Positions 5,601 to 63,997 are shown, counted from the stretch's first letter. The stretch: DNA of 64,000 bases from Candidatus Paracaedibacteraceae bacterium (GCA_030694965.1 JAUYTZ010000018.1:81559-145558), one strand, 5' to 3'. The notes: generated by a model from the sequence alone, not told the origin. A program made the numbers and translations.

Positions 5601-6127
5601 TTTACAAAGATGTCGCTGCATTCTGCACGATGTTCTGTGTTAGGTAGTAGAAGTAGCTGCGCAAGGGGTCCTTCATGAGCGCCTGTAAGACAAATCACCC
5701 CATCGGTACAATCGGCAAGTTCAGCCATGGTGACATGTGGTCCTATCAGGCCCTGTTCTTTAAAATAAGCGCGACTGATAAGTTTCATTAAACTCATGTA
5801 GCCAGCTTCATTTTGCGCCAAGAAAACCATTGGAGATGGCGTCGTTGTTACTTTTGGAAAGAGCGTGCTTAGATCAATAGTTAATTGGCACCCAATGATT
5901 GGCTGAATACCGGCATCCGTTGCCGCCATAGAAAATTCAAGCGCGCCAAACATGTTGTTTGTGTCTGTCAGTGCCATGGCAGGCATGTTGTGTTTTTGGC
6001 ATAGCTTTGGTAGGCTCTTCATCAAAATAGCGCCTTCGGTTAACGAATAGGCTGAATGCACGCGAAGGTGCACAAAGCCGTCGTAAACGGCCGAATTTGA
6101 GACCAATGATGAGGAAGTTGAAGTCAA
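2654..6127 (-). CDS. dnaE: DNA polymerase III alpha subunit
   Basis: 1157 aa. PHP domain start FVHLRVHSAYSL, core motifs GFPGYFLIVSDFI and MPDFDVDF, OB-fold C-terminus. Confidence 0.97.
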   Translation of the reverse strand: MTSTSSSLVSNSAVYDGFVHLRVHSAYSLTEGAILMKSLPKLCQKHNMPAMALTDTNNMFGALEFSMAATDAGIQPIIGCQLTIDLSTLFPKVTTTPSPMVFLAQNEAGYMSLMKLISRAYFKEQGLIGPHVTMAELADCTDGVICLTGAHEGPLAQLLLLPNTEHRAECSDIFVKTLLELFPNRLYIELQRHGIPVQQQLETQFLDTALRFNIPIVATNNVFFDTPDMHQAHDALLCVAAGAYVEQDQRRMETPRHYFRSSAEMKEVFADLPEAIENTVNIARRCHYRPLPRKPILPNFPTESGRTENEEMWDQSHAGLEKRLIEEVFNRFPEEQHEALRTQYTERLRYELGIIDTMGFPGYFLIVSDFIKWAKDKGIPVGPGRGSGAGSLVAWVLLITDMDPLRFNLLFERFLNPERVSMPDFDVDFCQDRRDEVIRYVCEKYGMDRVAHIITFGKLQARIVIRDVGRVLQMPYGQIDRICKMIPNNPANPMTLAQSIEHEPLLKQQRDDDEMVARLMDIGMKLEGLYRHASTHAAGVVIGDRPLDELVPLYRDEKSDLAVTQFNMKYVETAGLVKFDFLGLKTLTVVEYCCRLVRAETGTDFRIQTIPLDDPATFALLCRVEAVGIFQLESAGMRDVLRRLQPDRFEDLIALVALYRPGPMDDIPRYLACKHGEEAISYLHPLLKDILEPTYGVMVYQEQVMQIAQVLGGYTLGAADLLRRAMGKKIKSEMDAQRTLFTEGAIKNGIKKEIASQIFDQMAKFAGYGFNKSHSAPYALLAYQTAYLKANYPLQFFAATMTLDMHNTDKLNVYRQDLDRQEIPLLPPNVNESDVTFKVENGGIRYGLAAIKGVGAQAMESLVAERTKNGPFKSLGDFAARIDAGAVNKRQLENMVTSGTFDCMQSNRRQLVEGLEALLGIAQQIRTQKASKQKMLFGGGTNEVAQEVPLPDVMEWTPLDRLQQEFDALGFYLSAHPLDMYKEALDKLGVVKSCNLLERATNSNQTVALAGIILTKQERTSKKGDRFAFVTMTDLTGVYEVAFFSETFTTVRDKLIPGQAVYVTGNLRADGDESYRLTGNGLEPLDNKAKVESFELLIDPKKANVAYLAEIISGLKRGRTIIQFLIPVDEIGTIKVTLKDGYDVTPNQKAALLQVCG

Positions 6128-6206: not shown

Positions 6207-9041
6207 TTATCTATTCAAACCAACAACAACATCTTCGCAGCGAATACAAATATCATTGTGTTCTCTGATTGAATCAGCTGCGCCAACTTCAGGAAGAATA
6301 CGCCAGCAACGTTGACATTTTCCGCCCTCTGCTACGTTCACAACAACACCAACACCAGGTACATCATCAAGCGTTACAGCGCCTGCAGGTGCTTGTGCCA
6401 ATAGGATTTTAGCGGATGATGTAATACACAGTTCAGCCAAATCAAGACCTTGTAGATATGTTGCCTTTTCAGCAGAGATATATAACGCAACGCTACCTTG
6501 TAAGCTGGACCCAATGGTTTTTGCTGCGCGTTCTAATTCAAGTGCAGATGTAATCACACGACGAATATCACGAATAGCTTCCCAGCGTGTAGCCAAGGCT
6601 GGTTGGTGCCAATTAGCGTCTAATTTTGGAAATTGTGATGCGTGAATGCTTGTTTTGTCAGTCACACCTGTTTGTGTTTGGTATTCTTGATATGCTTCTT
6701 CAGCTGTAAAGCTTAGAACAGGTGCTAGCCAGTGTGTTAAACATAAAAGTATTTGATTCATTACGGTGCGTGTAGCACGGCGGCTGAGTGAGTCGGCTCC
6801 ATCACAATAGAGTGAATCTTTACGGATATCAAAATAAAAAGCCGATAGATCCACAGCACACAAATGATGCAAATCCATATAGAATGCTGAAAAATCAAAG
6901 CTTTCAATAGCAGCTTGATGCGCCGTTTCGATTTCTTTTAAGCGATGTAAAACCCACTGTTCTAATGCTGGCATAGACTTTGCGTCAATTGTTTCAGCTT
7001 CTGAAAAGCCTGAAAGGGCGCCAAGCAAATAACGTAGAGTGTTGCGGAAACGACGATAAATATCTTCTTGGTGCTTTAGGATTTCATTACCAATACGTAA
7101 ATCTTCAGTGTAGTCAGAGTTGACAATCCAAAGACGTAACATATCTGCACCGTATTTTTGAATGACTTCTGCTGGTGCAACGATATTGCCAATAGACTTT
7201 GACATTTTGTAACCGCGTTCATCAAGCACAAACCCGTGCGTAACAACTTTTTTATAAGGTGCAACGCCAGCAGTTCCACAGCTTTGTAACAACGATGATT
7301 GAAACCAGCCGCGGTGTTGATCGGAACCTTCAAGGTACACATCTGCAGGCCATTGTTGATCTGGATTATCGCGCAATACAAAAGAATGCGTGCAGCCGCT
7401 GTCAAACCATACGTCTAATATATCATTGATTTTTTCATAGTCATTTGCATCATAGGCGTCGCCCAGAAAATAAGCAGCATCATTTTTAAACCAAACATCG
7501 GCACCTTCAGCAGCGATGGCGTCAACAATGCGCTGATGGACAGCAGGATCACGAAGTGGTTCACCGCTGCGCTTGTTTACAAAGATGGTCATTGGCGTTC
7601 CCCAGGCACGTTGACGTGATAGGCACCAATCTGGACGTGATTCAACCATGCTTTTAATGCGGTTTTTACCTGAAGCTGGGAACCATTCAACCACGTCAAT
7701 GGCTTCAAGTGCTTTTTTACGAAGGTCATTTGTTTGCATTGAAACAAACCATTGTGCAGTTGCACGGTAAATAAGCGGGGCCTTTGATCGCCATGAATGT
7801 GGATAGCTATGCGTTAGCTTTGATGTTTTAAGAAGCGCATTAACATCTGTTAAGGCTTGTATAACAACTGGATTTATTTTGAAAATATGTTGACCGGCAA
7901 ATAATGGAACATGTTCATAATATGTACCATCACCTTGAACCGTTTCAGGGACAGCGATACCAAATTTTTTGCCAACTTCAAAGTCTTCCACACCGTGTCC
8001 TGGCGCTGTATGTACAAGACCTGTACCCGCATCAACGGTTACGTGGTCGCCGGTCAAGAATGGAACGTCAAAATCATAACCTTTTAATGCATCTTTGTGA
8101 TCGCGCCATGGGTGTGCACATATAATACCAGCAAGATCTGCACCAAGGCATTTAAATGTAATTTCAAAATCTTCCAGACCGACGGCAGTACAAAAGGCAG
8201 ATGCAAGATCTTTTGCTACAAGGAACTGACGATCGCTTGTAATTAAGTCTGTGGCTTGTTTTGCTTTAATGACGACGTATTCAATTTCTTCGCCATAGGC
8301 GATGGCCCGGTTTCCTGGAAGTGTCCATGGGGTTGTTGTCCAAATGACAGCAGCAACGTTATTAAGCGCTGCAATCGTTGATTTGACGATGTTAAATGCG
8401 ACGTAAATGGAATCACTAGTATGGTCTTTATATTCGACTTCAGCGTCAGCAAGAGCTGTTTTTTCAACAACAGACCACATAACAGGGCGCAGGCCGCGAT
8501 ATAAAGATCCGTTCATCAAAAATTTGCCAAGTTCAGCTACAATTTTTGCTTCTGTTTCAAAGGCCATCGTTGAATAAGCATTGTCAAAGTCAGCAATGAT
8601 ACCTAAACGCTTGAATTCTTCTTTTTGAATAGCTGTCCAATTTGCTGCAAATGTGCGGCATTCAGCGCGAAATACAAGTGGGTCAACTTCGTCTTTATTT
8701 TTACCTTTTGCACGGTATTGTTCTTCGATTTTCCATTCGATGGGAAGGCCATGACAGTCCCAGCCAGGAATCATGCCTGCATCAAAACCATTCATTTGGT
8801 ATGTCTTATTAATAATGTCTTTTAAGACTTCACTTAAAGCATGCCCAATGTGGATGTTGCCATTTGCATAAGGAGGGCCAAACGCCATGACAAATTTTGG
8901 TCGGCCTTTGCTTTGCGTGCGAAGAAACTGGAATAAATGATCGGATTCCCATTGTGCCAAAATTTCTGGTTCGCGCACAGATAGATTTGCTTTCATAGCG
9001 AACGTTGTTTTTGGTAGAAAAACTGAAGCTTTATAGTCCAT
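6207..9041 (-). CDS. ileS: isoleucine--tRNA ligase
   Basis: 944 aa. HIGH-type motif PPYANGNIHIGHAL, KMSKS present, C-terminal zinc knuckle CQRCWR...CIRC. Confidence 0.97.
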   Translation of the reverse strand: MDYKASVFLPKTTFAMKANLSVREPEILAQWESDHLFQFLRTQSKGRPKFVMAFGPPYANGNIHIGHALSEVLKDIINKTYQMNGFDAGMIPGWDCHGLPIEWKIEEQYRAKGKNKDEVDPLVFRAECRTFAANWTAIQKEEFKRLGIIADFDNAYSTMAFETEAKIVAELGKFLMNGSLYRGLRPVMWSVVEKTALADAEVEYKDHTSDSIYVAFNIVKSTIAALNNVAAVIWTTTPWTLPGNRAIAYGEEIEYVVIKAKQATDLITSDRQFLVAKDLASAFCTAVGLEDFEITFKCLGADLAGIICAHPWRDHKDALKGYDFDVPFLTGDHVTVDAGTGLVHTAPGHGVEDFEVGKKFGIAVPETVQGDGTYYEHVPLFAGQHIFKINPVVIQALTDVNALLKTSKLTHSYPHSWRSKAPLIYRATAQWFVSMQTNDLRKKALEAIDVVEWFPASGKNRIKSMVESRPDWCLSRQRAWGTPMTIFVNKRSGEPLRDPAVHQRIVDAIAAEGADVWFKNDAAYFLGDAYDANDYEKINDILDVWFDSGCTHSFVLRDNPDQQWPADVYLEGSDQHRGWFQSSLLQSCGTAGVAPYKKVVTHGFVLDERGYKMSKSIGNIVAPAEVIQKYGADMLRLWIVNSDYTEDLRIGNEILKHQEDIYRRFRNTLRYLLGALSGFSEAETIDAKSMPALEQWVLHRLKEIETAHQAAIESFDFSAFYMDLHHLCAVDLSAFYFDIRKDSLYCDGADSLSRRATRTVMNQILLCLTHWLAPVLSFTAEEAYQEYQTQTGVTDKTSIHASQFPKLDANWHQPALATRWEAIRDIRRVITSALELERAAKTIGSSLQGSVALYISAEKATYLQGLDLAELCITSSAKILLAQAPAGAVTLDDVPGVGVVVNVAEGGKCQRCWRILPEVGAADSIREHNDICIRCEDVVVGLNR

Positions 9042-11040: not shown

Positions 11041-13614
11041 TTATTCTTTTTTAGCTGGCGCCTTTTTTGTAGTTACTTTTTTAGCTGCAACTTTCTTTGC
11101 TGGAGCTTTTTTAGCTGCAACTTTCTTTGCTGGAGCTTTTTTGACAGCAGCCTTTTTTGTTGTTGCTTTCACATTTTCAGTGCTATCAGCTGCCTTTGCC
11201 TTAACAGTTGTTTTTCCTCTAACAGGGCGTGGTGGACGTGCTTTCTTTTTTGCAATAAGATCTACTGCTTCTTCGATTGTGACATGCAGGAAATCAATTG
11301 TTTTTGGGATGGATACAAACATGTCTTCATACTTAATATAAGGGCCAAAACGGCCATAACCGACGCTCATGGGCTTATCATCTTCTGGGTGCACACCAAT
11401 CATCTTGGGAAGAACAGATAATTGCATCGCTAATTCTAATGTTGCATCTGTTGGCAATACGGTAGCAGGTAAGGAGACACGCTTTGGCTTAGGTGCCTTT
11501 GGTTCTTTTTTCGGTTTTGCGGTCGACTTGCGTTTCGGTTTTGCCTCAGGATCAATAACAGGTTCTGGCGTTGGAATAATACCTTGCCATTCAAAATAGA
11601 ATCCATAAGGACCACGTTTTAGCAAAATTGGAATATTATGTATGGGGTCATTTCCCATTTCACGTGTTTCAGCTTCCATATGCTCTGCATTTGAATCATC
11701 GTCTTGCACAAGTGAACGTGTGTGGCGGCATTCAGGGTAGTTTGAACAACCGATGAATGCGCCAAACTTACTGAGTTTTAAATTCATTTTGCCTACTTTA
11801 CAAGCAGGGCATGTACGATCTTCTTCTGTTGTGCCATGAAATAAGAAATGCGCAAGATCGGCTTCCAGTGTATCAATAACTTCTGAAATGGTAAGCGGCG
11901 TTGTAAGTTCAACGTTCTTTTTAAAATCAGTCCAGAAATTTGTTAAGGTTGCTTGCCAAGAAAGATTTCCTGCAGAAATTTCGTCAAGCTCTTCTTCAAG
12001 TTGCGCTGTGAAATCATATTCAACATATTTTGGAAAATAGTGCGTTAAAAAGGATGTAACAATTCGGCCCCGATCTTCAGGAAAAAATTGACGCTTGTCA
12101 ACGCGCACATACTGGCGATCTTGTAATGTTTGAATAAGTGATGCGTATGTTGATGGGCGCCCAATACCAAGTTCTTCTAATTTTTTGACAAGCGTTGCTT
12201 CTGAAAAACGTGGTGGTGGCTGTGTGAAATGTTGATTTGGAGTGACGTCTTTTAAATCAACAGCTTGATTCTCGGTAAACTTAGGGAGTGTCCGTGCATT
12301 TTCATCATCGGATGGTTCATCAACACCTTCTTGATATAGGCGTAAAAACCCGTCAAATACTTGTGTTGAACCTGTCGCGCGGAAAACATTTTTACCGCTT
12401 GGGTCAGCCATATCAACAGCTACTTGATCAAATAAAGCTGTTTCCATTTGACTGGCAAGTGCGCGTTTCCATATAAGTTCGTAGAGCTTTCGTTGTTGAT
12501 CGTCAAGGTATGGAGCAACATCTTCAGGTTTTAATGTGAAGCGAGTGGGGCGGATACATTCGTGTGCTTCTTGTGCATTTTTTGCTTTTGTTTTGTATAC
12601 ACGTGGTGCGTTTGGAACATACGCATCGCCAAAATTTTTATTTAAAAAATCACGTGCTTCCGTGATTGCATCACCTGCCATATTGACGCTATCTGTACGC
12701 ATATAAGTGATTAAACCAAGCGTTTCGCCGCCAATTTCAATGCCTTCATATAATTTTTGGGCAACTTGCATTGTACGACTTGCACCAAATCCTAACTTGC
12801 GTGACGCTTCTTGTTGTAAGGTCGATGTGATAAATGGGGCTGCTGGGTTACGCTTTACTTGTTTTTTTTCAATGGATTTAACAGTATAGGATAAGACATT
12901 TAATTGGTTGACAGCAGCTTTTGCATCAATTTCATTAGTAATTGTAAACTTTTCAATCTTTGCGCCATTAAAGTAAGTTAAGCGCGCTTCGAATGCATCT
13001 TTGTTAGATTCAAAAGCACCTGTGATTGACCAGTATTCTTGGCTAATAAAGCGTTCAATTTCTTCTTCACGGTCAACAACAATACGAAGCGCAACAGATT
13101 GAACGCGTCCAGCTGAACGTGCGCCTGGAAGTTTGCGCCATAAGACCGGGGAAAGGGTGAAGCCAACAAGATAGTCAAGAGCCCGGCGCGCAAGATATGC
13201 TTGTACCAGTTCGTCATTTACAGGACGTGGGTGTTGCAGCGATGCTTGAACGGCTTTTTTGGTGATTTCATGAAAGACAATACGATGAATTTCCATGCCT
13301 TTTAATGCATTTGCGTCATTAAGTACTTCATTCACATGCCATGAAATTGCTTCCCCTTCTCTGTCAGGGTCGGTCGCTAGATAAAGTGTGTCAGCACCTT
13401 TTAGTGCTTTTTTTATGGCTTCAATATTTTTTCGTCCACGGTCATCCATTTCCCAAATCATTGAGAATGCATTGTCTGGATTAACAGATCCATTTTTGGA
13501 AGGAAGGTCTCGAATATGCCCATAGCTTGCTAAAACAGTAAAATCAGAACCGAGATACTTATTAATTGTTTTTGCTTTTGCAGGTGATTCAACGACAACG
13601 ACACTTCGTGACAA
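11041..13614 (-). CDS. topA: DNA topoisomerase I with Lys/Ala-rich C-terminal tail
   Basis: Toprim start VVVVESPAKAKTINKY, one C4 zinc ribbon CPACK...CSNYPEC, C-terminal topo-I repeat domains. TTG at 13614 preceded by AAGGAAG is preferred to the track start at 13668. Confidence 0.95.
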   Translation of the reverse strand: MSRSVVVVESPAKAKTINKYLGSDFTVLASYGHIRDLPSKNGSVNPDNAFSMIWEMDDRGRKNIEAIKKALKGADTLYLATDPDREGEAISWHVNEVLNDANALKGMEIHRIVFHEITKKAVQASLQHPRPVNDELVQAYLARRALDYLVGFTLSPVLWRKLPGARSAGRVQSVALRIVVDREEEIERFISQEYWSITGAFESNKDAFEARLTYFNGAKIEKFTITNEIDAKAAVNQLNVLSYTVKSIEKKQVKRNPAAPFITSTLQQEASRKLGFGASRTMQVAQKLYEGIEIGGETLGLITYMRTDSVNMAGDAITEARDFLNKNFGDAYVPNAPRVYKTKAKNAQEAHECIRPTRFTLKPEDVAPYLDDQQRKLYELIWKRALASQMETALFDQVAVDMADPSGKNVFRATGSTQVFDGFLRLYQEGVDEPSDDENARTLPKFTENQAVDLKDVTPNQHFTQPPPRFSEATLVKKLEELGIGRPSTYASLIQTLQDRQYVRVDKRQFFPEDRGRIVTSFLTHYFPKYVEYDFTAQLEEELDEISAGNLSWQATLTNFWTDFKKNVELTTPLTISEVIDTLEADLAHFLFHGTTEEDRTCPACKVGKMNLKLSKFGAFIGCSNYPECRHTRSLVQDDDSNAEHMEAETREMGNDPIHNIPILLKRGPYGFYFEWQGIIPTPEPVIDPEAKPKRKSTAKPKKEPKAPKPKRVSLPATVLPTDATLELAMQLSVLPKMIGVHPEDDKPMSVGYGRFGPYIKYEDMFVSIPKTIDFLHVTIEEAVDLIAKKKARPPRPVRGKTTVKAKAADSTENVKATTKKAAVKKAPAKKVAAKKAPAKKVAAKKVTTKKAPAKKE
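11081..11140. repeat. exact 30-bp tandem duplication inside the topA 3' end
   Basis: ttagctgcaactttctttgctggagctttt occurs at 11081-11110 and again at 11111-11140. It encodes KKAPAKKVAA twice. Confidence 0.9.
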
Positions 13615-41020: not shown

Positions 41021-42409
41021 TTACTTAATAATAATTACATTCAAATCAGAATCAATTTTAAAAGAAATATTGTTTAATAAAGCGGGATTGTCTCGAACTT
41101 GTCCAGCCGCTTTATTGAAATTTAAAGTTAACTGGGGATTGTAAGGTACGTTTGTTTTTCCAGTTCTATATGCTCGCAAAACTTGAGCAATAAATACACT
41201 TCCTTTTGTAATGCACTCTTGAATTGCTTGATATCTTGTTAAACCTTGCTTTTCTAAAGTGCTTGAAAGATTCACTAACAAAGCAGGAACATATGTTGGC
41301 GTTCTTTCTGTTCTGTATGTTAAAGGATCAAGCTCTTCTTGTAAAAGCATTTTCTGATCAAATGAAAGGGAGGCATAGGCATCTTTTAGGGCTTTTCCTT
41401 CTTCTTTTGAAAAGAGCCTAAGCATTGAGCCGATGCGTGCTAAAATGTATATTTGTTTGTTTTTGTCTAAACCTAATAAATTCGCCCGAGCATGTATATA
41501 ATGCTCCATTGCTTCTTTTTCACTATGTTCTTTCAGGAAATGGATAGCCTCTTTTACAGATTCTATAGATTTGAATGTATTTTCAGTGAGCACCTTTGAC
41601 CCACTGTTATCTTCATGGCCGCGCGCTCCGCTTACGTCACAAATATGGGTAAGGATTTCAAAATCAAATTCCTTTAAATCTTTGTCAAGGGTACCTGATT
41701 GTTTTAGCTTTGTAAGAATTTCTGGGCCACCTTCTACATGTGTAACGTGGCCAAAGTGCACTAGCCCATTCACTTTTTTTAGAATTTTTTTAGCTTTATC
41801 AGAAATTGATAAGAATGTTGGAAATATTCCAGGGCATTTCTTTAGGCATGCGTCAAGAAAAATATCATGATCTGATTCAATAATTCCATACTTTTTTGCC
41901 TTAAGACGTGCTGTTTGCGTTTTCCCCATGTCACCTAAAATAAGATTGACTTCCAAAGTTTGAAGAAAGTGTAAATCGTTTTCAATAATACTGTTAGCAA
42001 ATTCATGGAGACGCTTGAAGCTAACAAGCGAAAGCTTATCTTTTTGAGGTTGAAGTGAGGTAAAACGTTTATAAGCTTGATCACTTCCATTAACAATTAA
42101 ATGTAAACTAACAATACTTAAAATTGTTCTTTCAAATTCAGGATAATGCTTTCCTTTGAGCTTTTTCGACCAGCTATGCTCATATTTATATTGCTCAGAT
42201 TTCCCTTCTTGAGTATGTTGAACGGCATCACTTAAAAGCCATTCGAGCTCAGGATATTCTTTGATTTTGTTTTCTACCCATGATTTTTCCCCCAATTCAC
42301 TTAATGCAGGGACAGTAAAGGTTGCATTTGCAGGTGCTGGAAATAATAAGAAAAAAGATATTGCTGCATGAAAAAAAATACTTTTATAAAAATAATTAAT
42401 TTTTTTCAT
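41021..42409 (-). CDS. secreted hypothetical protein with degenerate HD-like and His-rich motifs
   Basis: 462 aa. Signal peptide MKKINYFYKSIFFHAAISFFLLFPAPANA. Motifs LILGDMGKT, ESDHDIFLD, HFGHVTHVEGG, THICDVSGARGHED. No family confidently recognised. Confidence 0.6.
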   Translation of the reverse strand: MKKINYFYKSIFFHAAISFFLLFPAPANATFTVPALSELGEKSWVENKIKEYPELEWLLSDAVQHTQEGKSEQYKYEHSWSKKLKGKHYPEFERTILSIVSLHLIVNGSDQAYKRFTSLQPQKDKLSLVSFKRLHEFANSIIENDLHFLQTLEVNLILGDMGKTQTARLKAKKYGIIESDHDIFLDACLKKCPGIFPTFLSISDKAKKILKKVNGLVHFGHVTHVEGGPEILTKLKQSGTLDKDLKEFDFEILTHICDVSGARGHEDNSGSKVLTENTFKSIESVKEAIHFLKEHSEKEAMEHYIHARANLLGLDKNKQIYILARIGSMLRLFSKEEGKALKDAYASLSFDQKMLLQEELDPLTYRTERTPTYVPALLVNLSSTLEKQGLTRYQAIQECITKGSVFIAQVLRAYRTGKTNVPYNPQLTLNFNKAAGQVRDNPALLNNISFKIDSDLNVIIIK

Positions 42410-46772: not shown

Positions 46773-47441
46773 TTACTTCGCTGCAGGAGCTGCTACTGGC
46801 ATTGCAGCCGCTGGAGTTGTTGCTGAAGCAACTGGAGCTTCAACTTTTTTGTCAGCTTTTGGAGCTTCAATTTTTGCTGCATCTTTTGGAGCTTCAATTT
46901 TTGCTGCATCTTTTGGAGCTTCAATTTTTGCTGCGTCTTTTGGAGCTTCAATTTTTGCTGCGTCTTTTGGAGCATCAACTTTTGCTGCGTCTTTTGAAGA
47001 GTCAGCTTTTGGAGCATCAACTTTTACAGCATCAACTTTTGGTGCATGTGCTTTTTTGCTTTTTTTACCAGCTTTTTTGCTGTGCTTGTGTTCTTTGCAA
47101 TCTTTGCTACATTCTTTTATTTTGATTTCGCCTGGTACATAAACGTGACTAGCATCTGCGTTGAAGGCATCAGTAAGCTTGTTGTCGCGTGAGTGTCCGC
47201 TACCTTTTTTTGATTCTTTAGCGTGCTTGTCATCTTTTTTGACAGCATCTATTTTGCCGTGGTCAGCTACTGCTGGAACTGAAGCCATTACAGGTGCAGC
47301 ACCAATTACTGGGGCTGAGGCTGTAGGCATTGGAGCCATTACAGGTGCTGGAGCTGCTGGCATTGGAGCCGCAGCTGGTGCAGCGCAATAACCAGAAGTA
47401 GTTCCAATTAGTACTAGTACAAGATTTAACATTTTTTTCAT
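46773..47441 (-). CDS. secreted Ala/Pro- and Lys-rich tandem-repeat protein (hypothetical)
   Basis: 222 aa. Signal peptide MKKMLNLVLVLIGTTSGYCA, an AP-rich segment, a basic His/Lys segment, then 9-aa repeats K(I/V)(E/D)APKDAA. Confidence 0.65.
   Translation of the reverse strand: MKKMLNLVLVLIGTTSGYCAAPAAAPMPAAPAPVMAPMPTASAPVIGAAPVMASVPAVADHGKIDAVKKDDKHAKESKKGSGHSRDNKLTDAFNADASHVYVPGEIKIKECSKDCKEHKHSKKAGKKSKKAHAPKVDAVKVDAPKADSSKDAAKVDAPKDAAKIEAPKDAAKIEAPKDAAKIEAPKDAAKIEAPKADKKVEAPVASATTPAAAMPVAAPAAK
46857..46991. repeat. 27-bp in-frame tandem repeat (about 5 copies plus degenerate flanking copies)
   Basis: Unit ttttggagcttcaatttttgctgcatc repeats head-to-tail from 46857. Degenerate copies extend to about 46827 and 47045. 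Confidence 0.9.
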
Positions 47442-48136: not shown

Positions 48137-48213
<77 letters not shown>

Positions 48214-48832: not shown

Positions 48833-50737
48833 TTATTTTGCTACACAAGAATTATCGCCTCTTGCGCCTTTTGACCATTTGCACATCCCGCTACCTGCAT
48901 TCTTGCAAATTGACCTTGAGGTAATGCCTTCACATTTAAACTCGCAACCTGTTGGTTCTTTCCAAATGCAATGAGATGATCGTGTTTGACAATCATAGAG
49001 TTGTTTACCTTGGCAATTCTTTTGTGCGCTCATAATAAGATCTGGGTTATTCAAATCATAAATAGGTGGCCCCATGTCTTTTTCAGCTTTAAGCGCTGCC
49101 TTTACGGTTGATTGAGCTGCTTCATTAGCAAGCGCTGCTGCGCGTGCGGCCTGTAAAAGCGGTTCAACAAGTTTTTTTGCTTTATGCGCTGCATGCGCAG
49201 ATTCTTCAAGAGGAAGAACAGCTGCATGCTGTGCTGAGTTTGCTTTAGACATAGCATGGAATGCTTTTCTTAAATCACTTGCGTGAGTTGCTGCTTTTTG
49301 TTTGTCTGTTGCCGATGAGGTTTCATCGGATTGAATAATATTGTTTGATTCCGCAGCCAGTTTTGACGCCTGTTCAAGCGATTCCATTGTCTTTTGTTCT
49401 GATTTTTCAATATCTGATAAGAGTAATTGAGCGCCAATAGCAAGATCAGCTGCTTCTTCCACCGCTTTAGCGACGGCATTTGCTGCATATATAGCTGCTG
49501 CTGCTGCCTGGCGTGCTAACTTTTCTGCCATAAGCTTGTATTCAGTTAAATTTTCTGCAACTACATTGCGTTGTATTTGCATTTGTTCTTTTAAGTTTAT
49601 AGGTAATATTACTTTCTGCGCAGTGTCTGGCTTGGTTGTTGTTGATATGTTGTCTTTTGATTTTGCTATATCACGTTGAATAATTACACTGGTATTATTA
49701 TTTGCACGAGTTGTTGATGCTTTGGTTGCAGGTGTCATAGAGAGTGTTTCTGTAGTAGGCTTGATTGGCATTGCATCGGCGTTTAATGCTTTATTTATTG
49801 ATACTTGCTGTGTGTTGGTAGTTGCTGTGGTTGGTATTGTAGTAGGTGCGGATTGAACAGACGCAAGGGCAGGAATTGGGGCAGCCGGTTTTTTTTGAAA
49901 GTTTGAAAAGAGACTAGAAGCAATATTTTGAGCACTCGATGGTAGTTGAGGTATGGAAGATGCTACAGCTAGTAAGCTCTTTGAAGCGATAGGCTCTGTT
50001 TGTGTGGCTGCTGCTGTAGTAGAAGCATTTGTTTCACTGGAAGTCTTAGAGTCTGCAGAAGAAATTGGTGCTGCTTGAGGCGCTGCTGTAGTAGAAGCAT
50101 TTGTTTCATTGGAGGTCGCAGAGTCTGCAGAAGAAATTGGTGCTGCTTGAGGCGCTGCTGTAGTAGAAGCATTTGTTTCATTGGAGGTCGCAGAGTCTGT
50201 AGAAGAAGTTGGCATTGCCTGAGGCGCTGCTATAGTAGAAGCATTTGTTTCATTGAAGGTCACAGAGTCTGCAGAAGAAGTTGGCATTGCCTGAGGCACT
50301 GCTATAGTAGAAGCATTTGTTTCATTGGAAGTCGTAGAATCTGTAGAAGAAGCTGGCACTGCCTGAGGCGCTGCTGTAGTGGAAGTGTTTGTTTCATTGA
50401 AGGTCGCTGAATCTGCAGAAGAAGTTGGTGCCGTTTGAGGAGCTGCTGTAGTAGAAGTATTTGTTTCACTGGAGGTAGCAGAATCTGTAGAGGTCCTGTT
50501 TGTTATGGTTGGGATTTCAAAATCATCTATGGGTGCTTGCGTTTTAGTAGTCTCTGTGTTTGAATCCGTGTTAGTTGTGGATGTTGTATTTGATACAGCA
50601 AAGTCATCTACAGGTGCTGGACTTGAAGATGTGGTTGCTGCTGTTTCCTCTGTTGAGTAAGAATAGCTTATGTGAAAAATGACCGCTAAAAGCACATAAA
50701 GAATTTTGTTTTTATTTATAATTTTCATCACATTCAC
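48833..50737 (-). CDS. secreted mucin-like Ser/Thr-rich repeat protein with Ala-rich helical region and C-terminal 8-Cys module
   Basis: 634 aa. Signal/anchor KILYVLLAVIFHISYS, about 7 copies of the 24-aa repeat APQAxPxSSxDSxTxNETNASTxA, an Ala-rich helical middle, and 8 Cys in the last ~60 aa including an RGD. Confidence 0.7.
   Translation of the reverse strand: MNVMKIINKNKILYVLLAVIFHISYSYSTEETAATTSSSPAPVDDFAVSNTTSTTNTDSNTETTKTQAPIDDFEIPTITNRTSTDSATSSETNTSTTAAPQTAPTSSADSATFNETNTSTTAAPQAVPASSTDSTTSNETNASTIAVPQAMPTSSADSVTFNETNASTIAAPQAMPTSSTDSATSNETNASTTAAPQAAPISSADSATSNETNASTTAAPQAAPISSADSKTSSETNASTTAAATQTEPIASKSLLAVASSIPQLPSSAQNIASSLFSNFQKKPAAPIPALASVQSAPTTIPTTATTNTQQVSINKALNADAMPIKPTTETLSMTPATKASTTRANNNTSVIIQRDIAKSKDNISTTTKPDTAQKVILPINLKEQMQIQRNVVAENLTEYKLMAEKLARQAAAAAIYAANAVAKAVEEAADLAIGAQLLLSDIEKSEQKTMESLEQASKLAAESNNIIQSDETSSATDKQKAATHASDLRKAFHAMSKANSAQHAAVLPLEESAHAAHKAKKLVEPLLQAARAAALANEAAQSTVKAALKAEKDMGPPIYDLNNPDLIMSAQKNCQGKQLYDCQTRSSHCIWKEPTGCEFKCEGITSRSICKNAGSGMCKWSKGARGDNSCVAK
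50009..50494. repeat. 72-bp in-frame tandem repeat (about 7 copies)
   Basis: gagtctgcag recurs at 50049 and 50121, and as gagtctgtag at 50193 (period 72). Adjacent central copies are nearly identical. Confidence 0.9.
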
Positions 50738-58104: not shown

Positions 58105-58460
58105 AAATAAAAAAAAGACGGCATTAATTTTTATTGTGCCAGTTTAAGAATTTTTGAAAGCTATACGCTCATAAATTTAGTCAATGCTTCTTGAAACAGT
58201 CAAGGACCCCGACTAAGCCCCAGGGGCAACGCAGTAATCAATATTTTGTGAAATTGGTAAATAACCACTCTAAGTTAAAACTGCGACTGTTTTAAGTGCT
58301 TTTTGATTGATATAAGAATTTGGTGTTAAGTCAAATTTTATACAGTGAATTTAAAGTCACATTTTTTGTAATTTAGACGGATATACTTAAAGCCTTCTTT
58401 CAATGAAGCCCACTATAATTTGGGCTTATATATTTAACATTGGAAAAGAGAAAAAAAACA

Positions 58461-60437
58461 ATGACAGACTTTAAATCATTTAATTTACCAGAGGCGCTTG
58501 TGTCTGCTCTGGAACGTTTAGATATTACAACCCCAACACCAATCCAGGCTGAAGCTATTCCGTTAGCGCTTGCTGGTGATGATGTTTTAGGTTCGGCCCA
58601 AACGGGAACAGGCAAAACACTTGCTTACTTAATTCCTATTTGCGTTAATTTACTTCAGTCTTCTGAAAAAAGAGCACTTGTAATGACGCCAACACGCGAG
58701 CTTGCAATTCAAGTACGTGATATGGCTATGAAAATTTTATCAAAAAAACCACAATTTGAAGCAGCTTTGTTGATTGGCGGAGATCCGATGGGCAAGCAGC
58801 TTGGTCAACTTCGTCATCACCCACAACTTATAATTGGTACACCAGGTCGTATTAATGATCACTTGAACCGTGGTTCACTTGATTTGCGCTCAACAGAACT
58901 TCTTGTTTTGGATGAAACAGACCGCATGCTTGATATGGGCTTTAGTGAACAGCTAGAAACAATTATTGAAGTGATGCCGACTGAACGCCAAACGTTGATG
59001 TTCTCAGCAACAATGCCAGATAATATCACGCGTATTGCAAAGCGTTATTTGAAAAATCCAAAGCGTATTACAATTGGTTCAACAACACAGCCAGTAACGC
59101 ACATTAAGCAGGACGTTATCTTTACCTCACATTCTGAAAAGTTTGCACATTTGCTGCGTGAGCTTAATGAACGTGAAGGTTCAGTTATCGTTTTCGTTAA
59201 AACAAAAATTAGTTGTGAAGATTTAAAAGAACGTTTATGTGATGAGCAACACTCAGCTGATGCAATTCATGGCGACTTGCAACAACGTAAACGTGAACGT
59301 GTTGTAAAAGCATTCCGTGCGAACAAAAGCCGTATTATGGTTGCAACTGATATTGCTGCACGTGGCTTGGATGTTCCACATATTCGTCACGTAATTAACT
59401 ATGACTTACCACAATGTCCAGAAGATTATATCCACCGTATTGGCCGTACAGGTCGTGCGGGCGCTGAAGGTTCTGCACTTTGCTTGTTGGCTCCAGATGA
59501 TCGTCATAAGTGGCGTGCAATTAGCCAATTGATGAATCCAGGCGAGCCTGTTGATTTTCCAAAAGGCATGAAGCCTGAAGGTCGTTCTGAAGGTGGCCGC
59601 GGACGCGGTGGCTTTGGTGGTCGTTCAGGTGGCGGCGGATTTGGTGGTCGTTCAAGTGGCGGTGGCTTCGGCGGTCGTCCACGCAGCGGTGGTTCTGAAG
59701 GCCGTGGCTTTGGTGGAGATCGTCCGCGTGGTGAAGGCCGCGGAGAAGGTCGCAGCTTTGGTAGTGGTGAAGGTCGCAGCTTTGGCGGTGATCGTAAACC
59801 ATCAGGTGAAGGTCGTGGCTTTGGTGGTGATCGTCCGCGCACTCCATCAGGTGAAGGTCGTAGCTTCGGCGGTGATCGTGATCGTAAACCAAGTGGTGAA
59901 GGTCGTAGCTTCGGCGGTGATCGTGATCGTAAACCAAGTGGTGAAGGTCGTAGCTTCGGCGGTGATCGTAAACCATCAGGTGAAGGCCGTGGCTTTGGTG
60001 GTGATCGTCCGCGTACTCCATCAGGTGAAGGCCGTAGTTTTGGCGGTGATCGCAGACCATCAGGTGAAGGCCGCAGTTTTGGTGGGGATCGTGATCGTAA
60101 ACCAAGTGGTGAAGGCCGTAGTTTCGGTGGTGATCGCAAACCAAGTGGTGAAGGTCGTAGTTTTGGTGGGGACCGTAAACCATCCGGTGAAGGCCGCAGT
60201 TTCGGCGGTGATCGTAAACCATCCGGTGAAGGCCGTAGTTTCGGTGGTGATCGTAAACCATCCGGTGAAGGTCGTGGTTTCAGTGGCGACCGTGATCGTA
60301 AACCAAGCGGTGAAGGCCGTAGTTTTGGCGGTGATCGCAAACCATCCGGTGAAGGTCGCAGTTTTGGCGGCGGGGCGTTTACGCCAAAGCCTAAGTCAGG
60401 TTTTGATGCGCGAAAAGCATTTTCACATTCTAACTAA
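58461..60437 (+). CDS. DEAD-box ATP-dependent RNA helicase (RhlE-like) with long RGG/FGG tandem-repeat C-terminal tail
   Basis: Q motif TPTPIQ, motif I AQTGTGKT, Ia PTRELA, II DETD (variant of DEAD), III SAT, V ATDIAARGLD, VI HRIGRTGRAG. ATG at 58461 is preferred to TTG at 58440. Confidence 0.93.
   Translation: MTDFKSFNLPEALVSALERLDITTPTPIQAEAIPLALAGDDVLGSAQTGTGKTLAYLIPICVNLLQSSEKRALVMTPTRELAIQVRDMAMKILSKKPQFEAALLIGGDPMGKQLGQLRHHPQLIIGTPGRINDHLNRGSLDLRSTELLVLDETDRMLDMGFSEQLETIIEVMPTERQTLMFSATMPDNITRIAKRYLKNPKRITIGSTTQPVTHIKQDVIFTSHSEKFAHLLRELNEREGSVIVFVKTKISCEDLKERLCDEQHSADAIHGDLQQRKRERVVKAFRANKSRIMVATDIAARGLDVPHIRHVINYDLPQCPEDYIHRIGRTGRAGAEGSALCLLAPDDRHKWRAISQLMNPGEPVDFPKGMKPEGRSEGGRGRGGFGGRSGGGGFGGRSSGGGFGGRPRSGGSEGRGFGGDRPRGEGRGEGRSFGSGEGRSFGGDRKPSGEGRGFGGDRPRTPSGEGRSFGGDRDRKPSGEGRSFGGDRDRKPSGEGRSFGGDRKPSGEGRGFGGDRPRTPSGEGRSFGGDRRPSGEGRSFGGDRDRKPSGEGRSFGGDRKPSGEGRSFGGDRKPSGEGRSFGGDRKPSGEGRSFGGDRKPSGEGRGFSGDRDRKPSGEGRSFGGDRKPSGEGRSFGGGAFTPKPKSGFDARKAFSHSN
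59578..60375. repeat. in-frame 39/45-bp tandem repeats (about 16 units) encoding GEGR(S/G)FGGDR(DR)(K/T)PS
   Basis: Protein-level periodicity is near perfect. DNA copies differ mostly at synonymous positions (ggtcgtagcttcggcggt vs ggccgcagttttggtggg), except for one exact 45-bp duplication around 59858-59947. Confidence 0.9.
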
Positions 60438-60467
60438 AAATTAATTTAGTTTAAAAATCACTTTTAA

Positions 60468-60502
60468 TAGCTATCTGAAAAACTCAGGTAGCTATTTTTT
60501 TT
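60468..60502 (+). terminator. rho-independent terminator of the helicase gene
   Basis: 11-bp stem tagctatctga / tcaggtagcta (one G-U pair), 5-nt loop, T8 run. Confidence 0.85.
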
Positions 60503-60715
60503 ATGTGTATGAGTGATGAGGACTAAGCAAGCAAAAGGAGCGGGTGTATCTCGATGCCTAATCGCTGCCTAAGAATCCAAAGCGAAAAGAGTTGGGGGCA
60601 AAACAAAAAATAAATTTTTTAGCTAACTTTATTAAAAATTTTAATTAATTGTTAACATAGTGAGGCGTAAATTCTTAATAAGACAAAGATATTGTAATAT
60701 TTTGGAGACCTTCTA

Positions 60716-63700
60716 ATGCGTAAAATGTTAACGCTAGCAGCGTTCAGTTTGAATTTTATAAGCCTTTTGAATGCCTCAACAGCACTTGATATAACCACTG
60801 CATTTTCACAAGCCAAGCTTCAAACGGCAAATTTTCAGAACAATACAACTGGGCCTGTTGATATTAATATATTAACGAATATTGTAACAATTTTAAATCC
60901 AGGTGAAGAAAAAGTAATTAATGCTGCTGGTGAAAATGGTTTTTTTATTTTAAATCAGGACAAATCTAAAAAAGTTAAAAAGGTGTTGCTGCATAATCTT
61001 GATAGAAAAGTGGCTTATAAAAAGATTACTCAAAAACATATTATTCATTTAGAAGGGGGAGAGAGTCACACGACCACTGTTTCTTTGCCTTCTTCTATAA
61101 ATGGGGCTAGCCTTGCTGATGCAAATCAAGCGTATCTAAATTGGTCTATCGACAATGGTCAATTCTCAGTTTTTGTATCTGGCGAAGATAATTTGTCAAT
61201 TTTAAGCTTAGATTTAGGTGTTAATTCTACACCCATGAATAAAGTCATTTTGGATTGCGCTGAATTTAAAACGCTTGAAGAGCAATTTGAGTCGCTTGGA
61301 GGAGAATTAATAAAAATTGATACTTCGTCAATGGCAGGCTACGTATATAACCCATGCATTATTAATTATAATGAAAAAATTTATATGACATTTCGTGTTC
61401 AAGAAGGTAGAAATAATCATTCATCGAATAGTAATATTTATTTTGCTGAAATTAGTAGCCAGTTTAAAGTTATAAAGAGCTATCCATTAATTGAAGGTAC
61501 TAAGCGCAATGCAGATGCACGTTTAAGTACTTATGCTTCAAAATTGTTTATTTCATACGTTCATGACTTTTATAAGTCAGATTATAGCTTTAGTAATTAC
61601 CACCCAAATGTTCACACTTCTTTTTTCAATCCTAACGAAACTATTCAACATACAATAAAGCCAGATATAGAAAATAATTGTACTTTTGATGCTAGGCAGA
61701 AAAATTGGCTTTTTTTTGAAAAAAGTAATAAGTTTTATATTATAGATAACATTGATCCTTTGTCTCTTTGGGACGCAACTAATAGTATAGAAAGACCGAC
61801 TAAGATCTTAGTAAAGGACAAAAAATTAAATAACTGGTGTTTTGGAGAGCCAAGAGCTTCTACAAATCCAATATTTATTGAAGAAATTGGCAAATGGCTC
61901 GTCTTGTTTCACTCATGTTTGACAAATTCAGACAATATTAGAAGTTACTTCAATGGTGCGTTATTATTTGATGATGATTTTGATATTACTCACTATACAA
62001 TGCTTCCAATTATAAGTTCAACATCGCAATACTCGCGAGGATTGTCTTATCCTCTCAATGCAATTATTCCCTATGGTTGCATTAGAAATAAGAATGACTT
62101 AGTTGTTAGTTTTGGTGTTAATGACGCTATTTCAGTTATAGGACGTTTTTCACTTAATAAGATACTTAATGCATTAAATCCGGTTAAAAACAATATCTTA
62201 TTTAATTTAAATAATAAGCAATCAGTGTATCCAAATGTATCTTTTAATATTGTTACATCAAAAGCGTTGCAAGGAGAACAAGGAGTAGTAGCTTGTTATG
62301 ATCGAGCATTAAAAGGGATTAAGCTTGGTTCTTCTAATGAAAATGAAATTATTTCAAAAGGAAAAGAAAATATTGATATTGTTTTAAGCTTTCATGGAGA
62401 AAGAATACATGATTTGATTCCAAATAATTATAGCTATTTAATTACTTCAGTAATAATGAATAATTTTTACCCTTACAATAGGGATGATGTGAAATTTCGA
62501 GCTAATTTGCAGCTTGGGAGCAATTCCTATTTAAAAGGAGTTTCAAAGTATGGAATTTTAAATAAATTCTTACTTGCACATCCCCGTACAAATTTTACTC
62601 CTTTAAATATTGATAATTTAAGTATCTTTTTTTGTGGAGGTGCTTGGGATAGTCGATACCCTAATTTATTAAATATTATGGATAACAAGCCATACTTTAA
62701 TTGGTACGGCCACCCTACTCACGGCATACCTGAAAGGAATTCGTATCGTGGCTTCAGCTCAATTCCGGCACAAACAATTAAGAAGCATGGCATTGCGCTT
62801 TTATTGCATGCTAAAGCTAATATTGAAAACTCAGAACCAGCATCAAAAATATTCGAAGCAGCTGCAGGAAGCGCTGTAATTATTTCTGATAAACTTACTT
62901 TCATAACGGAAGAGTTTGGTGATGCTGTATTTTATATTGATCAAAATGACCCTGAGGAAAAAATAGCACAAGATATTGATGGCTATTATCATTGGATTAT
63001 TACTCATCCTATTGAAGCGCAAGCAATGGCAAAAAAGGCGCATTCAATTTTTGTAGAAAGATTTACTTTAGAAGATCAACTCACTAGACTAATTAGTTTT
63101 CACCAAGAGAGCTTGCCTTTAGATGGTGAATCTATTTTATTGCCTCGAGCGCCCTTTAAAGTTCGTTCTTCTATAAATAAAAAATTTTTTGATCAGGCAA
63201 TAAATATGTTATTACCAACATCTTTGTCTATAGAAGCGAGTGATTATAACAATTTCAAACCAGTTTTTTTTGTTAAATATTTAAAAAAGGATTCTGTTTT
63301 TCCAGATGTGCCTGAATATATGGTACGGACTTCGAAAATAACTGAAATTATGGAGAACATGGCAGGTTCTAGTTGTGTAGCGCATGCTTTAGATTACGCT
63401 CCTTTGATTGCAAAAAAAATGGAACTAGAATTAGGAAGTGGCTTTTATTTTTCTGGAGTAGAAACTTTAAATTATTCTGATGTTTCTTTTTCTTGGGATG
63501 GAAATAAGTTCAAAATTTATTTTAATATAAATTCTTATGAAGAAAAATATGCGACGCAAAAATCAAAAGATCCTCTTTCAAGTTCTTTAGCGGATGCGCC
63601 AATTAAGTATTTTAGAAATGTCGACTTTATTGAGGGTTTTTCACGTTTAGAAGATTGGGGTGTGTGGACAGAAAGTAATCAATGCAAAATTAGAATAATT

Positions 63701-63997
63701 ATGAGTTCATTGGAATTAAATAAAAAATATGAGATTTCTTTTAAAATGAGTAGTTATACACCTAAAAAAGATTCATGCGTTGATTTGCAATTATTAGTAA
63801 ATAATGTAGTTGTAAACCAATCAAGATTTACAAAAGATTCAAACATGCAGACTTTATCAGTCTTTTATACTAAAGAAGTAGAAAAAGATTTAGTCATAAA
63901 TTTTTTGTTGAATGGGATTTCTTCGCCTTTTGAGAATAATGAAAATATGGATTATCGTAGATTAGGTGTTTCAATTAGGGACATTATTATTAAATAA
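60716..63997 (+). CDS. large Sec-signal multidomain protein with GT-B (CgeB/Glyco_trans_1_2-like) glycosyltransferase half and beta-rich flanking domains
   Basis: 1093 aa. Signal peptide MRKMLTLAAFSLNFISLLNASTA. Residues ~190-480 are beta-propeller-like (YNPCIINYNEKIYMTFRV, QKNWLFFEKSNKFYIID). Residues ~640-790 are GT1-like (SKIFEAAAGSAVIISD...AQAMAKKAHSIFVERFTLEDQL). The C-terminal ~130 aa are beta-sandwich-like (GFSRLEDWGVWTES...DYRRLGVSIRDIII). Confidence 0.7.
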   Translation: MRKMLTLAAFSLNFISLLNASTALDITTAFSQAKLQTANFQNNTTGPVDINILTNIVTILNPGEEKVINAAGENGFFILNQDKSKKVKKVLLHNLDRKVAYKKITQKHIIHLEGGESHTTTVSLPSSINGASLADANQAYLNWSIDNGQFSVFVSGEDNLSILSLDLGVNSTPMNKVILDCAEFKTLEEQFESLGGELIKIDTSSMAGYVYNPCIINYNEKIYMTFRVQEGRNNHSSNSNIYFAEISSQFKVIKSYPLIEGTKRNADARLSTYASKLFISYVHDFYKSDYSFSNYHPNVHTSFFNPNETIQHTIKPDIENNCTFDARQKNWLFFEKSNKFYIIDNIDPLSLWDATNSIERPTKILVKDKKLNNWCFGEPRASTNPIFIEEIGKWLVLFHSCLTNSDNIRSYFNGALLFDDDFDITHYTMLPIISSTSQYSRGLSYPLNAIIPYGCIRNKNDLVVSFGVNDAISVIGRFSLNKILNALNPVKNNILFNLNNKQSVYPNVSFNIVTSKALQGEQGVVACYDRALKGIKLGSSNENEIISKGKENIDIVLSFHGERIHDLIPNNYSYLITSVIMNNFYPYNRDDVKFRANLQLGSNSYLKGVSKYGILNKFLLAHPRTNFTPLNIDNLSIFFCGGAWDSRYPNLLNIMDNKPYFNWYGHPTHGIPERNSYRGFSSIPAQTIKKHGIALLLHAKANIENSEPASKIFEAAAGSAVIISDKLTFITEEFGDAVFYIDQNDPEEKIAQDIDGYYHWIITHPIEAQAMAKKAHSIFVERFTLEDQLTRLISFHQESLPLDGESILLPRAPFKVRSSINKKFFDQAINMLLPTSLSIEASDYNNFKPVFFVKYLKKDSVFPDVPEYMVRTSKITEIMENMAGSSCVAHALDYAPLIAKKMELELGSGFYFSGVETLNYSDVSFSWDGNKFKIYFNINSYEEKYATQKSKDPLSSSLADAPIKYFRNVDFIEGFSRLEDWGVWTESNQCKIRIIMSSLELNKKYEISFKMSSYTPKKDSCVDLQLLVNNVVVNQSRFTKDSNMQTLSVFYTKEVEKDLVINFLLNGISSPFENNENMDYRRLGVSIRDIIIK

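Follow-up and report, generated by a model that had tools for sequence, protein, structure and literature searches.

The window analysed here is a stretch of 64,000 nucleotides (nt) from a Candidatus Paracaedibacteraceae bacterium (GCA_030694965.1, JAUYTZ010000018.1:81559-145558), which carries at its 3' end, on the plus strand, an open reading frame (ORF) for a large multidomain protein of 1093 amino acids (aa). In the ORF listing this frame (60716-63997) starts with an ATG and ends three bases before the window edge. A GGAG ribosome-binding site, read directly from the sequence, is situated 8 nt 5' of the start codon (60704-60707, plus strand). A terminator-like hairpin with a 13-pair stem and a T-run (60466-60496, plus strand) is found 3' of the preceding DEAD-box helicase gene; since this hairpin ends the helicase gene, the 1093-aa ORF opens its own transcription unit. 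At about 31% GC, the random stop-codon rate is ~7.8%, and the chance of encountering 1093 open codons is, by simple arithmetic, near 1e-39. In addition, an identical protein, denoted as "hypothetical protein", is on deposit from a Candidatus Paracaedibacteraceae metagenome-assembled genome (MAG; 368-kb contig). The start codon, the GGAG site, the improbable open length and the deposited protein agree that the ORF proposed in an initial annotation of this DNA is a real gene. From the N- to the C-terminus, the encoded protein consists of a Sec-type signal peptide, a family-specific beta-sandwich, a GH130/GT108 propeller, a GT-B module, a small alpha/beta domain, and a DUF7024 domain; judged by fold searches, profiles, and AlphaFold2 (AF2) models, the domain calls of the initial annotation were each correct or nearly so. 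Our preferred reading, for which we put the chances a little short of even, is that of an exported glycan-building or -tailoring enzyme that would act outside the cytoplasmic membrane on activated sugars supplied by the host.

An exhaustive HMMER search, run against 1.84 billion representatives, yielded 1220 relatives at E <= 1e-3 (in the following, relative proteins are labelled P0xxx, and contigs carrying relatives or the locus itself L0xxx). The hits form separate N-domain, propeller, and GT-B groups, with modules shuffled among proteins of 350-1050 aa, some of which show GT2-type or weak TcdA/TcdB-like matches.

Residues 182-490 (61259-62185, plus strand) form a five-bladed beta-propeller of the GH130/GT108 type, as seen in the AF2 model, the Foldseek comparison, and the profile matches. 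The propeller (residues 185-490) is modelled with a predicted local distance difference test score (pLDDT) above 90, and the top 44 Foldseek matches in the PDB all belong to GH130 or to GT108 (Leishmania mannosyltransferase/phosphorylases), with E values of 6e-14 to 2e-9 and target-normalised template modelling (TM) scores of 0.53-0.71. The PF04041 match at residues 382-487 reaches 24.5 bits and thus stays below the curated cut-off of 26, which the relative P0002 passes with 34.3 bits. A single-sequence search of the PDB with the target retrieved nothing, and PHROGs held no informative family for the propeller. A family profile of 17 sequences, too diverse for locus scanning (a 9-sequence alignment was used there), matches the PDB entries of the beta-1,2-mannobiose phosphorylase Lin0857 (4e-9) and of Uhgb_MS (1e-7). 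The tentatively proposed GH130/DUF377-type propeller is hence borne out by both fold and profile matches.

Conserved positions of the propeller comprise D267-A-R269, K329-N330-W331, H399, and Y411, and every family-invariant residue of the propeller as well as of the GT-B module is retained in the target. D267-A-R269 aligns with the DPR of Uhgb_MS and Lin0857, the FHS containing H399 with YHG, and Y411 with the tyrosine of a Y-x-x-G-A-L-L-D block. By analogy with the family, D267 would be the catalytic aspartate, and H399 and Y411 would belong to the phosphate/donor site. Of the basic phosphate-binding set in the middle blades, by which phosphorylases, hydrolases, and transferases are told apart, K329-N330 is present, in a region where the sequences are unaligned to solved members. 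Thus, the target shares with the GH130 beta-mannoside enzymes (Lin0857, Uhgb_MS, Teth514_1788) and with Leishmania GT108 the five-bladed fold, the D-x-R acid motif, and the C-terminal H...Y...G-A-L-L-x-D block, but it is only 11-18% identical to them, harbors Q-K-N-W-L-F-F-E in place of the usual middle-blade signature, and, unlike them, combines the propeller with other domains behind a signal peptide. Among solved GH130 enzymes, the beta-1,2-mannoside group is the nearest. GH130/GT108 reactions span hydrolases, phosphorylases, and transferases, and the beta-1,2-specific GH130 phosphorylases also accept GDP-mannose (PMC12814180). Because of this variety, the fold alone leaves the reaction unfixed. 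The closest named relative, P0002 from Candidatus Finniella inopinata (WP_130153808.1), carries tandem propellers (residues 1-273 and 335-649), the first of which seems to be truncated by the annotated start. Another 55 distant relatives of the QKNW propeller (21-31% identity) are found on IMG/VR viral contigs of 5-380 kb (L017-L071), giant-virus MAGs included.

The propeller is followed by a complete GT-B fold at residues of about 505-805 (62228-63130, plus strand), assigned to the Glyco_trans_1_2 (CgeB/YkvP-like) type on the basis of AF2, Foldseek, and the Pfam matches of relatives. A first full-length AF2 model, built on a noisy alignment of mixed architectures, was poor at residues 492-706 and 940-1093; a model of residues 495-960 from a trimmed 85-sequence alignment reached a pLDDT of 84.8 and a predicted TM score of 0.87. 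Structural matches extend over 320-345 columns (E 5e-9 to 1e-5) and cover two Rossmann-like halves. The best match is SenB (4.6e-9, 336 columns, 321-residue target), followed by GtfC, Gtf3, PimA, BshA, and WaaG. The earlier call of a C-terminal GT-B half of the CgeB/Glyco_trans_1_2 type was therefore right in the type of fold, whereas its extent has to be revised, as the fold is complete with both Rossmann halves. The Glyco_trans_1_2 match (PF13524) at residues 686-793 stays at 20.9 bits, below the cut-off of 25, and relatives reach 29-48 bits. Among 85 sequences, H698, R711, E714, and D725 are near-invariant and kept in the target, with the R-x-x-E motif located in the nucleotide-binding half; nucleotide-sugar-dependent transfer is the putative activity. 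The Leloir GT-B enzymes (SenB, Gtf3/GtfC, GT4) show the same two Rossmann-like halves and the R-x-x-E helix in the C-terminal half. The target differs from these known members, which are cytoplasmic, in sharing only about 12% identity, in having an extra C-terminal alpha/beta domain, and in its export leader. The GT-B family profile did not match any PDB sequence, and the literature found on Glyco_trans_1_2 comprised only catalogues of lipooligosaccharide loci. CgeB-like proteins of giant viruses match the GT-B module by fold with 10-16% identity, and a sequence scan of viral contigs detected no GT-B relatives; a giant-virus origin of this module was rejected as unsupported, the likeness of the folds being generic.

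Three further domains border the catalytic modules. The N-domain (residues 22-175; 60779-61240, plus strand) is a lineage-specific beta-sandwich, delimited by homologous stretches in relatives and by AF2, where strands at residues 35-130 are modelled at a pLDDT of about 80; a beta-rich domain had been anticipated at this position. It directly follows the signal peptide in relatives of differing catalytic content (P0003, P0016, P0033, P0040, and P0123), and its profile showed no credible family in Pfam and PDB. Downstream of the GT-B fold, an accessory domain composed of an alpha/beta part and a beta-sheet (residues of about 810-955; 63143-63580, plus strand) is common to the long GT-B relatives, whose alignments reach query residues 857-928; its strands and helices are modelled by AF2 at a pLDDT of 70-94, with a disordered loop. 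The C-terminal beta-sandwich (residues 966-1092; 63611-63991, plus strand) belongs to DUF7024, as judged by Pfam and by its likeness to the protein encoded downstream. The DUF7024 match (PF22895, residues 968-1092) reaches 23.4 bits, below the curated threshold of 24.4. Over 127 aa, the domain shares 31% identity (E 7e-21) with residues 34-160 of the protein encoded downstream. The DUF7024 domain of that protein exceeds the cut-off with 30 bits and weakly matches positions 638-761 of the 763 positions of the OpgB model (E 0.0016). OpgB (MdoB), a phosphoglycerol transferase, is a periplasmic enzyme acting on periplasmic beta-glucans. Its sulfatase-type catalytic domain is absent from the target, and the likeness to its C-terminal domain is weak and, for the target, indirect, running via the partner's domain. 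The initial annotation had compared the C-terminal sandwich with those at the ends of surface-polysaccharide enzymes, which fits the weak match of the paralogous copy to the C-terminal end of OpgB. Word-indexed homologue searches with the full-length protein, with residues 860-1093, and with a two-sequence DUF7024 alignment returned only the target itself or nothing, and a literature search on DUF7024/PF22895 found no reports.

Sequence downstream of the window was obtained from the Logan contig L001, which is 100% identical to the window over an overlap of 3691 bp. There, a partner gene of 629 aa (L001 3746-5635, about 55 nt past the window end) begins 57 nt after the target's stop codon and possesses its own AAAGGA site. 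According to Pfam and inspection, its product consists of a hydrophobic leader (MIFIIILVNLFLFNFCFA-QS) lacking a basic n-region, the DUF7024 domain, and a GT61 domain (E 2.7e-21). The partner gene is probably co-transcribed with the target gene, the latter being the first gene of a two-gene unit with the DUF7024-GT61 protein second. Beyond the partner, a gene for a metallo-beta-lactamase-fold protein and then ComEC are located. The upstream genes are of the housekeeping type (helicase, L28, Ctp peptidase, RppH, TsaD, and S1), and no transporter or catabolic gene adjoins the target gene.

The closest relatives of the target (40-46% identity) are found in Candidatus Finniella inopinata and allied MAGs of the same family. 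Relatives with a taxon name stem from Finniella, Bodocaedibacter, Holosporaceae, Rickettsiaceae, and Parachlamydiaceae, all of them lineages of intracellular symbionts, and from two alphaproteobacterial MAGs with loose names. Within a set of species-representative genomes, close copies are restricted to Finniella and one related MAG, and more distant ones (20-28% identity) are held by Chlamydiia and various MAGs. On L072, the GT-B module (P0005) and the propeller (P0014) are encoded by separate genes of one cluster, together with a leader-bearing protein of no assigned function, a GT90 gene, two GT4 genes, and a Wzx-type flippase; following the Rosetta-stone argument, the modules fused in the target would act in one glycan pathway. 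The gene that comes after a GT-B relative on L074 encodes a leader-bearing GT61 protein, which shares 30% identity with the target's partner (E 1e-12), and a second leader-bearing gene, without assignment, is next in line; as the order of GT-B and GT61 recurs here, the gene pair is conserved. On L073, a relative is flanked on one side by a DXD sugar-binding protein and on the other by a leader-bearing gene (12131-13222) with a faint Sulfotransfer_1 match, and on L002 a leader-bearing gene resembling methyltransferases dependent on S-adenosylmethionine (SAM) (6958-8593) comes after the relative. These methyl- and sulfotransferase-like neighbors would, as far as their sequences tell, be further exported enzymes, the usual cofactors of which are present only in a cytoplasm. 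On the viral contig L020, a propeller relative scoring above the GH130 cut-off is encoded between GT25 and GT32-like genes. As a separate observation, a Candidatus Finniella inopinata MAG (L004, 1437-6921) harbors a leader-bearing propeller homologue just 3' of genes for a VgrG spike and a MORN-repeat protein, with a further leader-bearing gene on the opposite strand; this arrangement suggests a possible connection with a type VI secretion island.

The gene contexts of the relatives are all biosynthetic and none is catabolic. They bear directly on the idea of a periplasmic scavenger, in which the GH130 module, and perhaps also the GT-B module, would act as phosphorylase or hydrolase on host glycans, using inorganic phosphate and delivering sugar-1-phosphates for uptake. 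GT-B folds do include phosphorylases, the D-x-R motif and the His and Tyr of the phosphate/donor site are kept, and the puzzle of the donor would disappear, as no nucleotide sugar is needed. Phosphorolysis is, moreover, the canonical GH130 reaction (PMC12814180). However, every informative neighborhood (GT61, GT4, GT90, GT25, GT32-like, Wzx) is of the biosynthetic kind, transporter and catabolic genes are missing next to the target, and the matches of its GT-B module are Leloir transferases rather than GT35-type phosphorylases, which renders scavenging improbable.

Whether the protein leaves the cytoplasm depends on its N-terminus. Residues 1-23 (60716-60784, plus strand) exhibit, by inspection, the layout of a Sec-type signal peptide, and the same n-h-c order is seen in relatives, in line with the cleavable-type signal proposed at the outset. 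The MRK n-region is followed by a 15-residue h-region (MLTLAAFSLNFISLL), by NASTA, and then by LD, with S-T-A preceding the likely cleavage site. Small residues occupy positions -3 and -1; there is no lipobox cysteine, the first cysteine being residue 181, so that the protein is not a lipoprotein (a lipobox is present in the relative P0017). Inspection alone thus assigns to the target the features of a type I Sec signal, i.e. a positive n-region, an h-region of 7-15 residues, small residues at -3/-1, and no lipobox. A second hydrophobic segment of transmembrane strength was not seen by inspection anywhere in the 1093-aa protein. Among close relatives with sufficient N-terminal room, 12 of 20 possess a hydrophobic N-terminal run of ~17 residues, with net charges of +2 before and -3.5 after the run; such a run is also present in 67 of the 105 shorter GT-B relatives, most of which share the charge polarity. 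A charge asymmetry in the same direction was counted in 12/12 close and 45/67 distant relatives by a crude heuristic of hydrophobicity and charge, which is supportive, not decisive. P0005, apparently leaderless, gains a leader when translation starts at an upstream in-frame GTG preceded by GGAGG. Export of the target protein is thus predicted from inspection and from this heuristic.

The same N-terminus could alternatively be an uncleaved anchor or remain unused, leaving the protein as a glycosyltransferase at the cytoplasmic face that consumes the bacterium's own nucleotide sugars, as in O-antigen or capsule assembly. Both catalytic folds are normally cytoplasmic, a standard Wzx-type cluster contains the separate modules alongside ordinary GT4 genes, some relatives are leaderless as annotated, and the claimed surface location of another Leloir-type enzyme, Lst, has proved doubtful (see below). 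Against this stands the build of the N-terminus: the h-region is no longer than 15 residues, includes helix-breaking N and S, and stands between MRK on one side and small residues and acidic charge on the other, a layout from which an N-in, C-out orientation or cleavage is predicted. The recurrence of the charge asymmetry in close and distant relatives alike, the conserved beta-sandwich immediately behind the leader, and a DUF7024 domain in common with a periplasmic enzyme point in the same direction. A cytoplasmic location is therefore regarded as quite unlikely.

Returning to the exported enzyme, the following course of events is proposed. The Sec system would export a fusion of two glycan-forming modules, a propeller most similar to the beta-1,2-mannoside phosphorylase/transferase group and a complete GT-B enzyme, to the periplasm or the cell surface. 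The flanking beta-sandwich modules would probably hold the glycan substrate, to which propeller and GT-B add sugars; the product may be an extended or decorated envelope polysaccharide or a surface glycoprotein, and the GT61 partner would perform a further step. The host cytoplasm bathing the symbiont would provide the donors, either GDP-/UDP-sugars or sugar-1-phosphates. Gram-negative Leloir glycosyltransferases are taken to act at the cytoplasmic face, as the nucleotide sugars are located there, and the initial annotation had rightly pointed out that an exported member is paradoxical. This topological puzzle is real and family-wide, as leaders are present on most close relatives and on neighboring GT61, methyltransferase-like, and sulfotransferase-like genes. 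All described Paracaedibacteraceae inhabit the host cytoplasm (PMC11909080). A normal periplasm offers no source of donors; as these bacteria reside in the host cytoplasm, their surroundings should contain GDP-/UDP-sugars. The solution already suggested in the initial annotation, sugar nucleotides of a host compartment, fits the taxonomy of the named relatives and the cofactor-dependent, leader-bearing neighbors, and would account for the export of the enzyme, though it is still a matter of interpretation.

Several points weigh against the exported, host-fed enzyme. We know of no nucleotide sugar in the bacterial periplasm, and anionic donors with masses of about 570-600 Da are not known to cross the outer membrane. 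The target's own three Pfam matches (GH130, Glyco_trans_1_2, and DUF7024) are all slightly sub-threshold. In the middle blades, with the family-specific QKNWLFFE motif, HMMER gives no alignment to solved GH130 members, and the DUF7024 region as well as the arrangement of the domains relative to each other are poorly modelled by AF2. As for the leader, the heuristic also flags 17 of the 49 ORFs in the window, and 8 of the 20 close relatives have no leader as called. Finally, for the best-known precedent put forward, the gonococcal sialyltransferase Lst, the surface location is contradicted by evidence that places the enzyme in the cytoplasm (PMC8092323).

Two systems were considered as precedents. 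Chlamydia secretes the GT-B enzyme GlgA in order to use host UDP-glucose (PMC4829429). GlgA of Chlamydia trachomatis, found in the inclusion lumen, resembles the proposed case in being a GT-B enzyme of an intracellular bacterium that works outside its own cell on host-derived UDP-glucose; it differs in being a single-domain GT5 protein that has no Sec leader and uses type III secretion, and it resides in a vacuole that is fed through a recruited host transporter. Lst of Neisseria resembles the target in concept, as a Leloir-type enzyme fed by host-made CMP-Neu5Ac, and has no sequence relation to it; in view of the cytoplasmic evidence, it was rejected as a firm precedent (PMC8092323).

A broader form of the preferred reading would hold that protist endosymbionts dwelling in the cytoplasm have shifted part of their glycan synthesis to the outside, via a Sec-exported, Leloir-type toolkit drawing on host pools. 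Such a toolkit would encompass GT-B, GH130/GT108-like, GT61, and methyl-/sulfotransferase-like partners, with the target as a fused two-enzyme member; it would use host nucleotide sugars, perhaps also SAM and 3'-phosphoadenosine-5'-phosphosulfate (PAPS), and would build a symbiont coat or glycosylate an exported Ser/Thr-rich protein. We consider this generalisation somewhat unlikely. Each of the folds is known; undescribed are the architecture (signal peptide, new beta-sandwich, propeller, GT-B, and DUF7024), the N-domain, the QKNW propeller subgroup, and the family-wide pairing of Sec leaders with Leloir-type folds in intracellular symbionts. If true, a leader-bearing family of GT-B, GH130-like, and GT61 enzymes confined to intracellular symbionts would represent a testable case of host-donor use, with a bearing on how symbionts with reduced genomes build or disguise their surface, on metabolic parasitism, and on the functional range of GH130/GT108 propellers. 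The fusion, for its part, ties two uncharacterised groups of enzymes to a single pathway.

Exported enzymes with access to host nucleotide sugars might also be directed at the host itself. As a glycosylating effector, the protein would leave the bacterium after Sec translocation and modify host proteins or glycans. This would suit the restriction of the family to endosymbionts, the Finniella homologue just downstream of VgrG and MORN-repeat genes, and exported partners in need of SAM- or PAPS-type cofactors found only in a cytoplasm; weak matches to TcdA/TcdB-like and DXD sugar-binding proteins in P0019 and P0023 could be read in the same way. These TcdA_TcdB and Gly_transf_sug matches are, however, sub-threshold and confined to the two relatives, and in the target no match to a GT-A fold or DXD motif as in the GT44 toxins (TcdA/TcdB, Lgt, SetA type) was detected, so that it lacks a GT-A module. 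Neither a domain for translocation across the outer membrane nor a recognised secretion motif is present, and type VI substrates are normally devoid of Sec leaders. The Wzx/GT4 cluster and the OpgB-type DUF7024 domain point instead to glycans of the bacterium itself, and an effector role is accordingly judged unlikely.

The gene differs in composition from the remainder of the window. Its GC content is 0.311, compared with a mean of 0.399 (standard deviation 0.028) over the 48 other ORFs of the window (z = -3.2), and GC at synonymous third codon positions (GC3s) is 0.199, where 0.266 is expected from its own amino-acid content and the codon usage of the window (z = -5.0). The latter value is the lowest of 49 ORFs; the synonymous-site z of the others ranges from -2.7 to +5.7, the upper end being held by a 1157-aa ORF at 2654-6127. 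The residues F, Y, M, I, N, and K account for 0.376 of the protein, the top share among the 49 ORFs, and a large share of the GC deficit falls on codon positions 1 and 2, reflecting the amino-acid composition. GC3 in the window tracks expression-type genes. The gene is thus compositionally distinct, as the initial annotation had noticed by eye, and the most AT-biased of the window. Its AT-richness is real, but the contrast with the flanks was exaggerated, because the adjoining upstream helicase, at a GC content of 0.480, is the GC-richest gene of the window. This DEAD-box helicase gene (58440-60437, plus strand; GC at second codon positions 0.54) is overlapped by spurious ORFs on both strands.

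From the AT-richness, the initial annotation had proceeded to horizontal acquisition, and a recent transfer from a giant virus, a eukaryote, or an unrelated bacterium would indeed suit a gene with the lowest GC and the lowest synonymous GC among 49 ORFs, followed by a partner gene that is likewise under the average (0.362). Distant propeller relatives reside on 55 viral contigs, giant-virus MAGs among them, and CgeB-like proteins of giant viruses head the list of viral fold matches. The closest relatives, however, belong to Finniella and allied MAGs of the same bacterial family, the viral propeller relatives are far more distant (21-31% identity), and for GT-B the sequence scan of viral contigs yielded no relative. 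Searches of the window revealed no tRNA, integrase, repeat, or mobile-element signature flanking the gene (the only tRNA lies at 48137). Homologues in other genomes are not consistently GC-poor, e.g. 0.362 compared with 0.355 for the locus in L002, and the deficit at codon positions 1 and 2 is one of amino-acid composition. A weakly expressed, fast-evolving, AT-biased gene would give the same low-GC signal. As the nearest relatives lie within the same family and the low GC3 fits weak expression, recent horizontal transfer is unsupported, and we regard it as highly improbable.

Other ORFs with leaders were noticed in the window. A 634-aa ORF on the minus strand (48833-50737) encodes a signal-like leader, an Ala-rich helical region, and a Cys-rich C-terminus, and did not match any family in Pfam and NCBIfam. 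Ahead of the Ala-rich region, it contains a repeat array (50010-50491) of 6.7 tandem copies of a 72-bp unit, corresponding to a Ser/Thr-rich sequence of 24 aa (about SSADSATSNETNASTTAAPQAAPI), each with two N-x-S/T sequons. Going by its sequence, this mucin-like exported protein, located 10 kb away, would be a natural acceptor for glycosylation. A 222-aa ORF (46773-47441, minus strand) shows a leader, a Pro/Ala-rich stretch, and repeated APKDAAKIE, and has the lowest GC3 of the window after the target gene. A leader-bearing DUF6829 protein of 462 aa (E 1.4e-34) is encoded at 41021-42409 on the minus strand, with a low GC content of 0.341.

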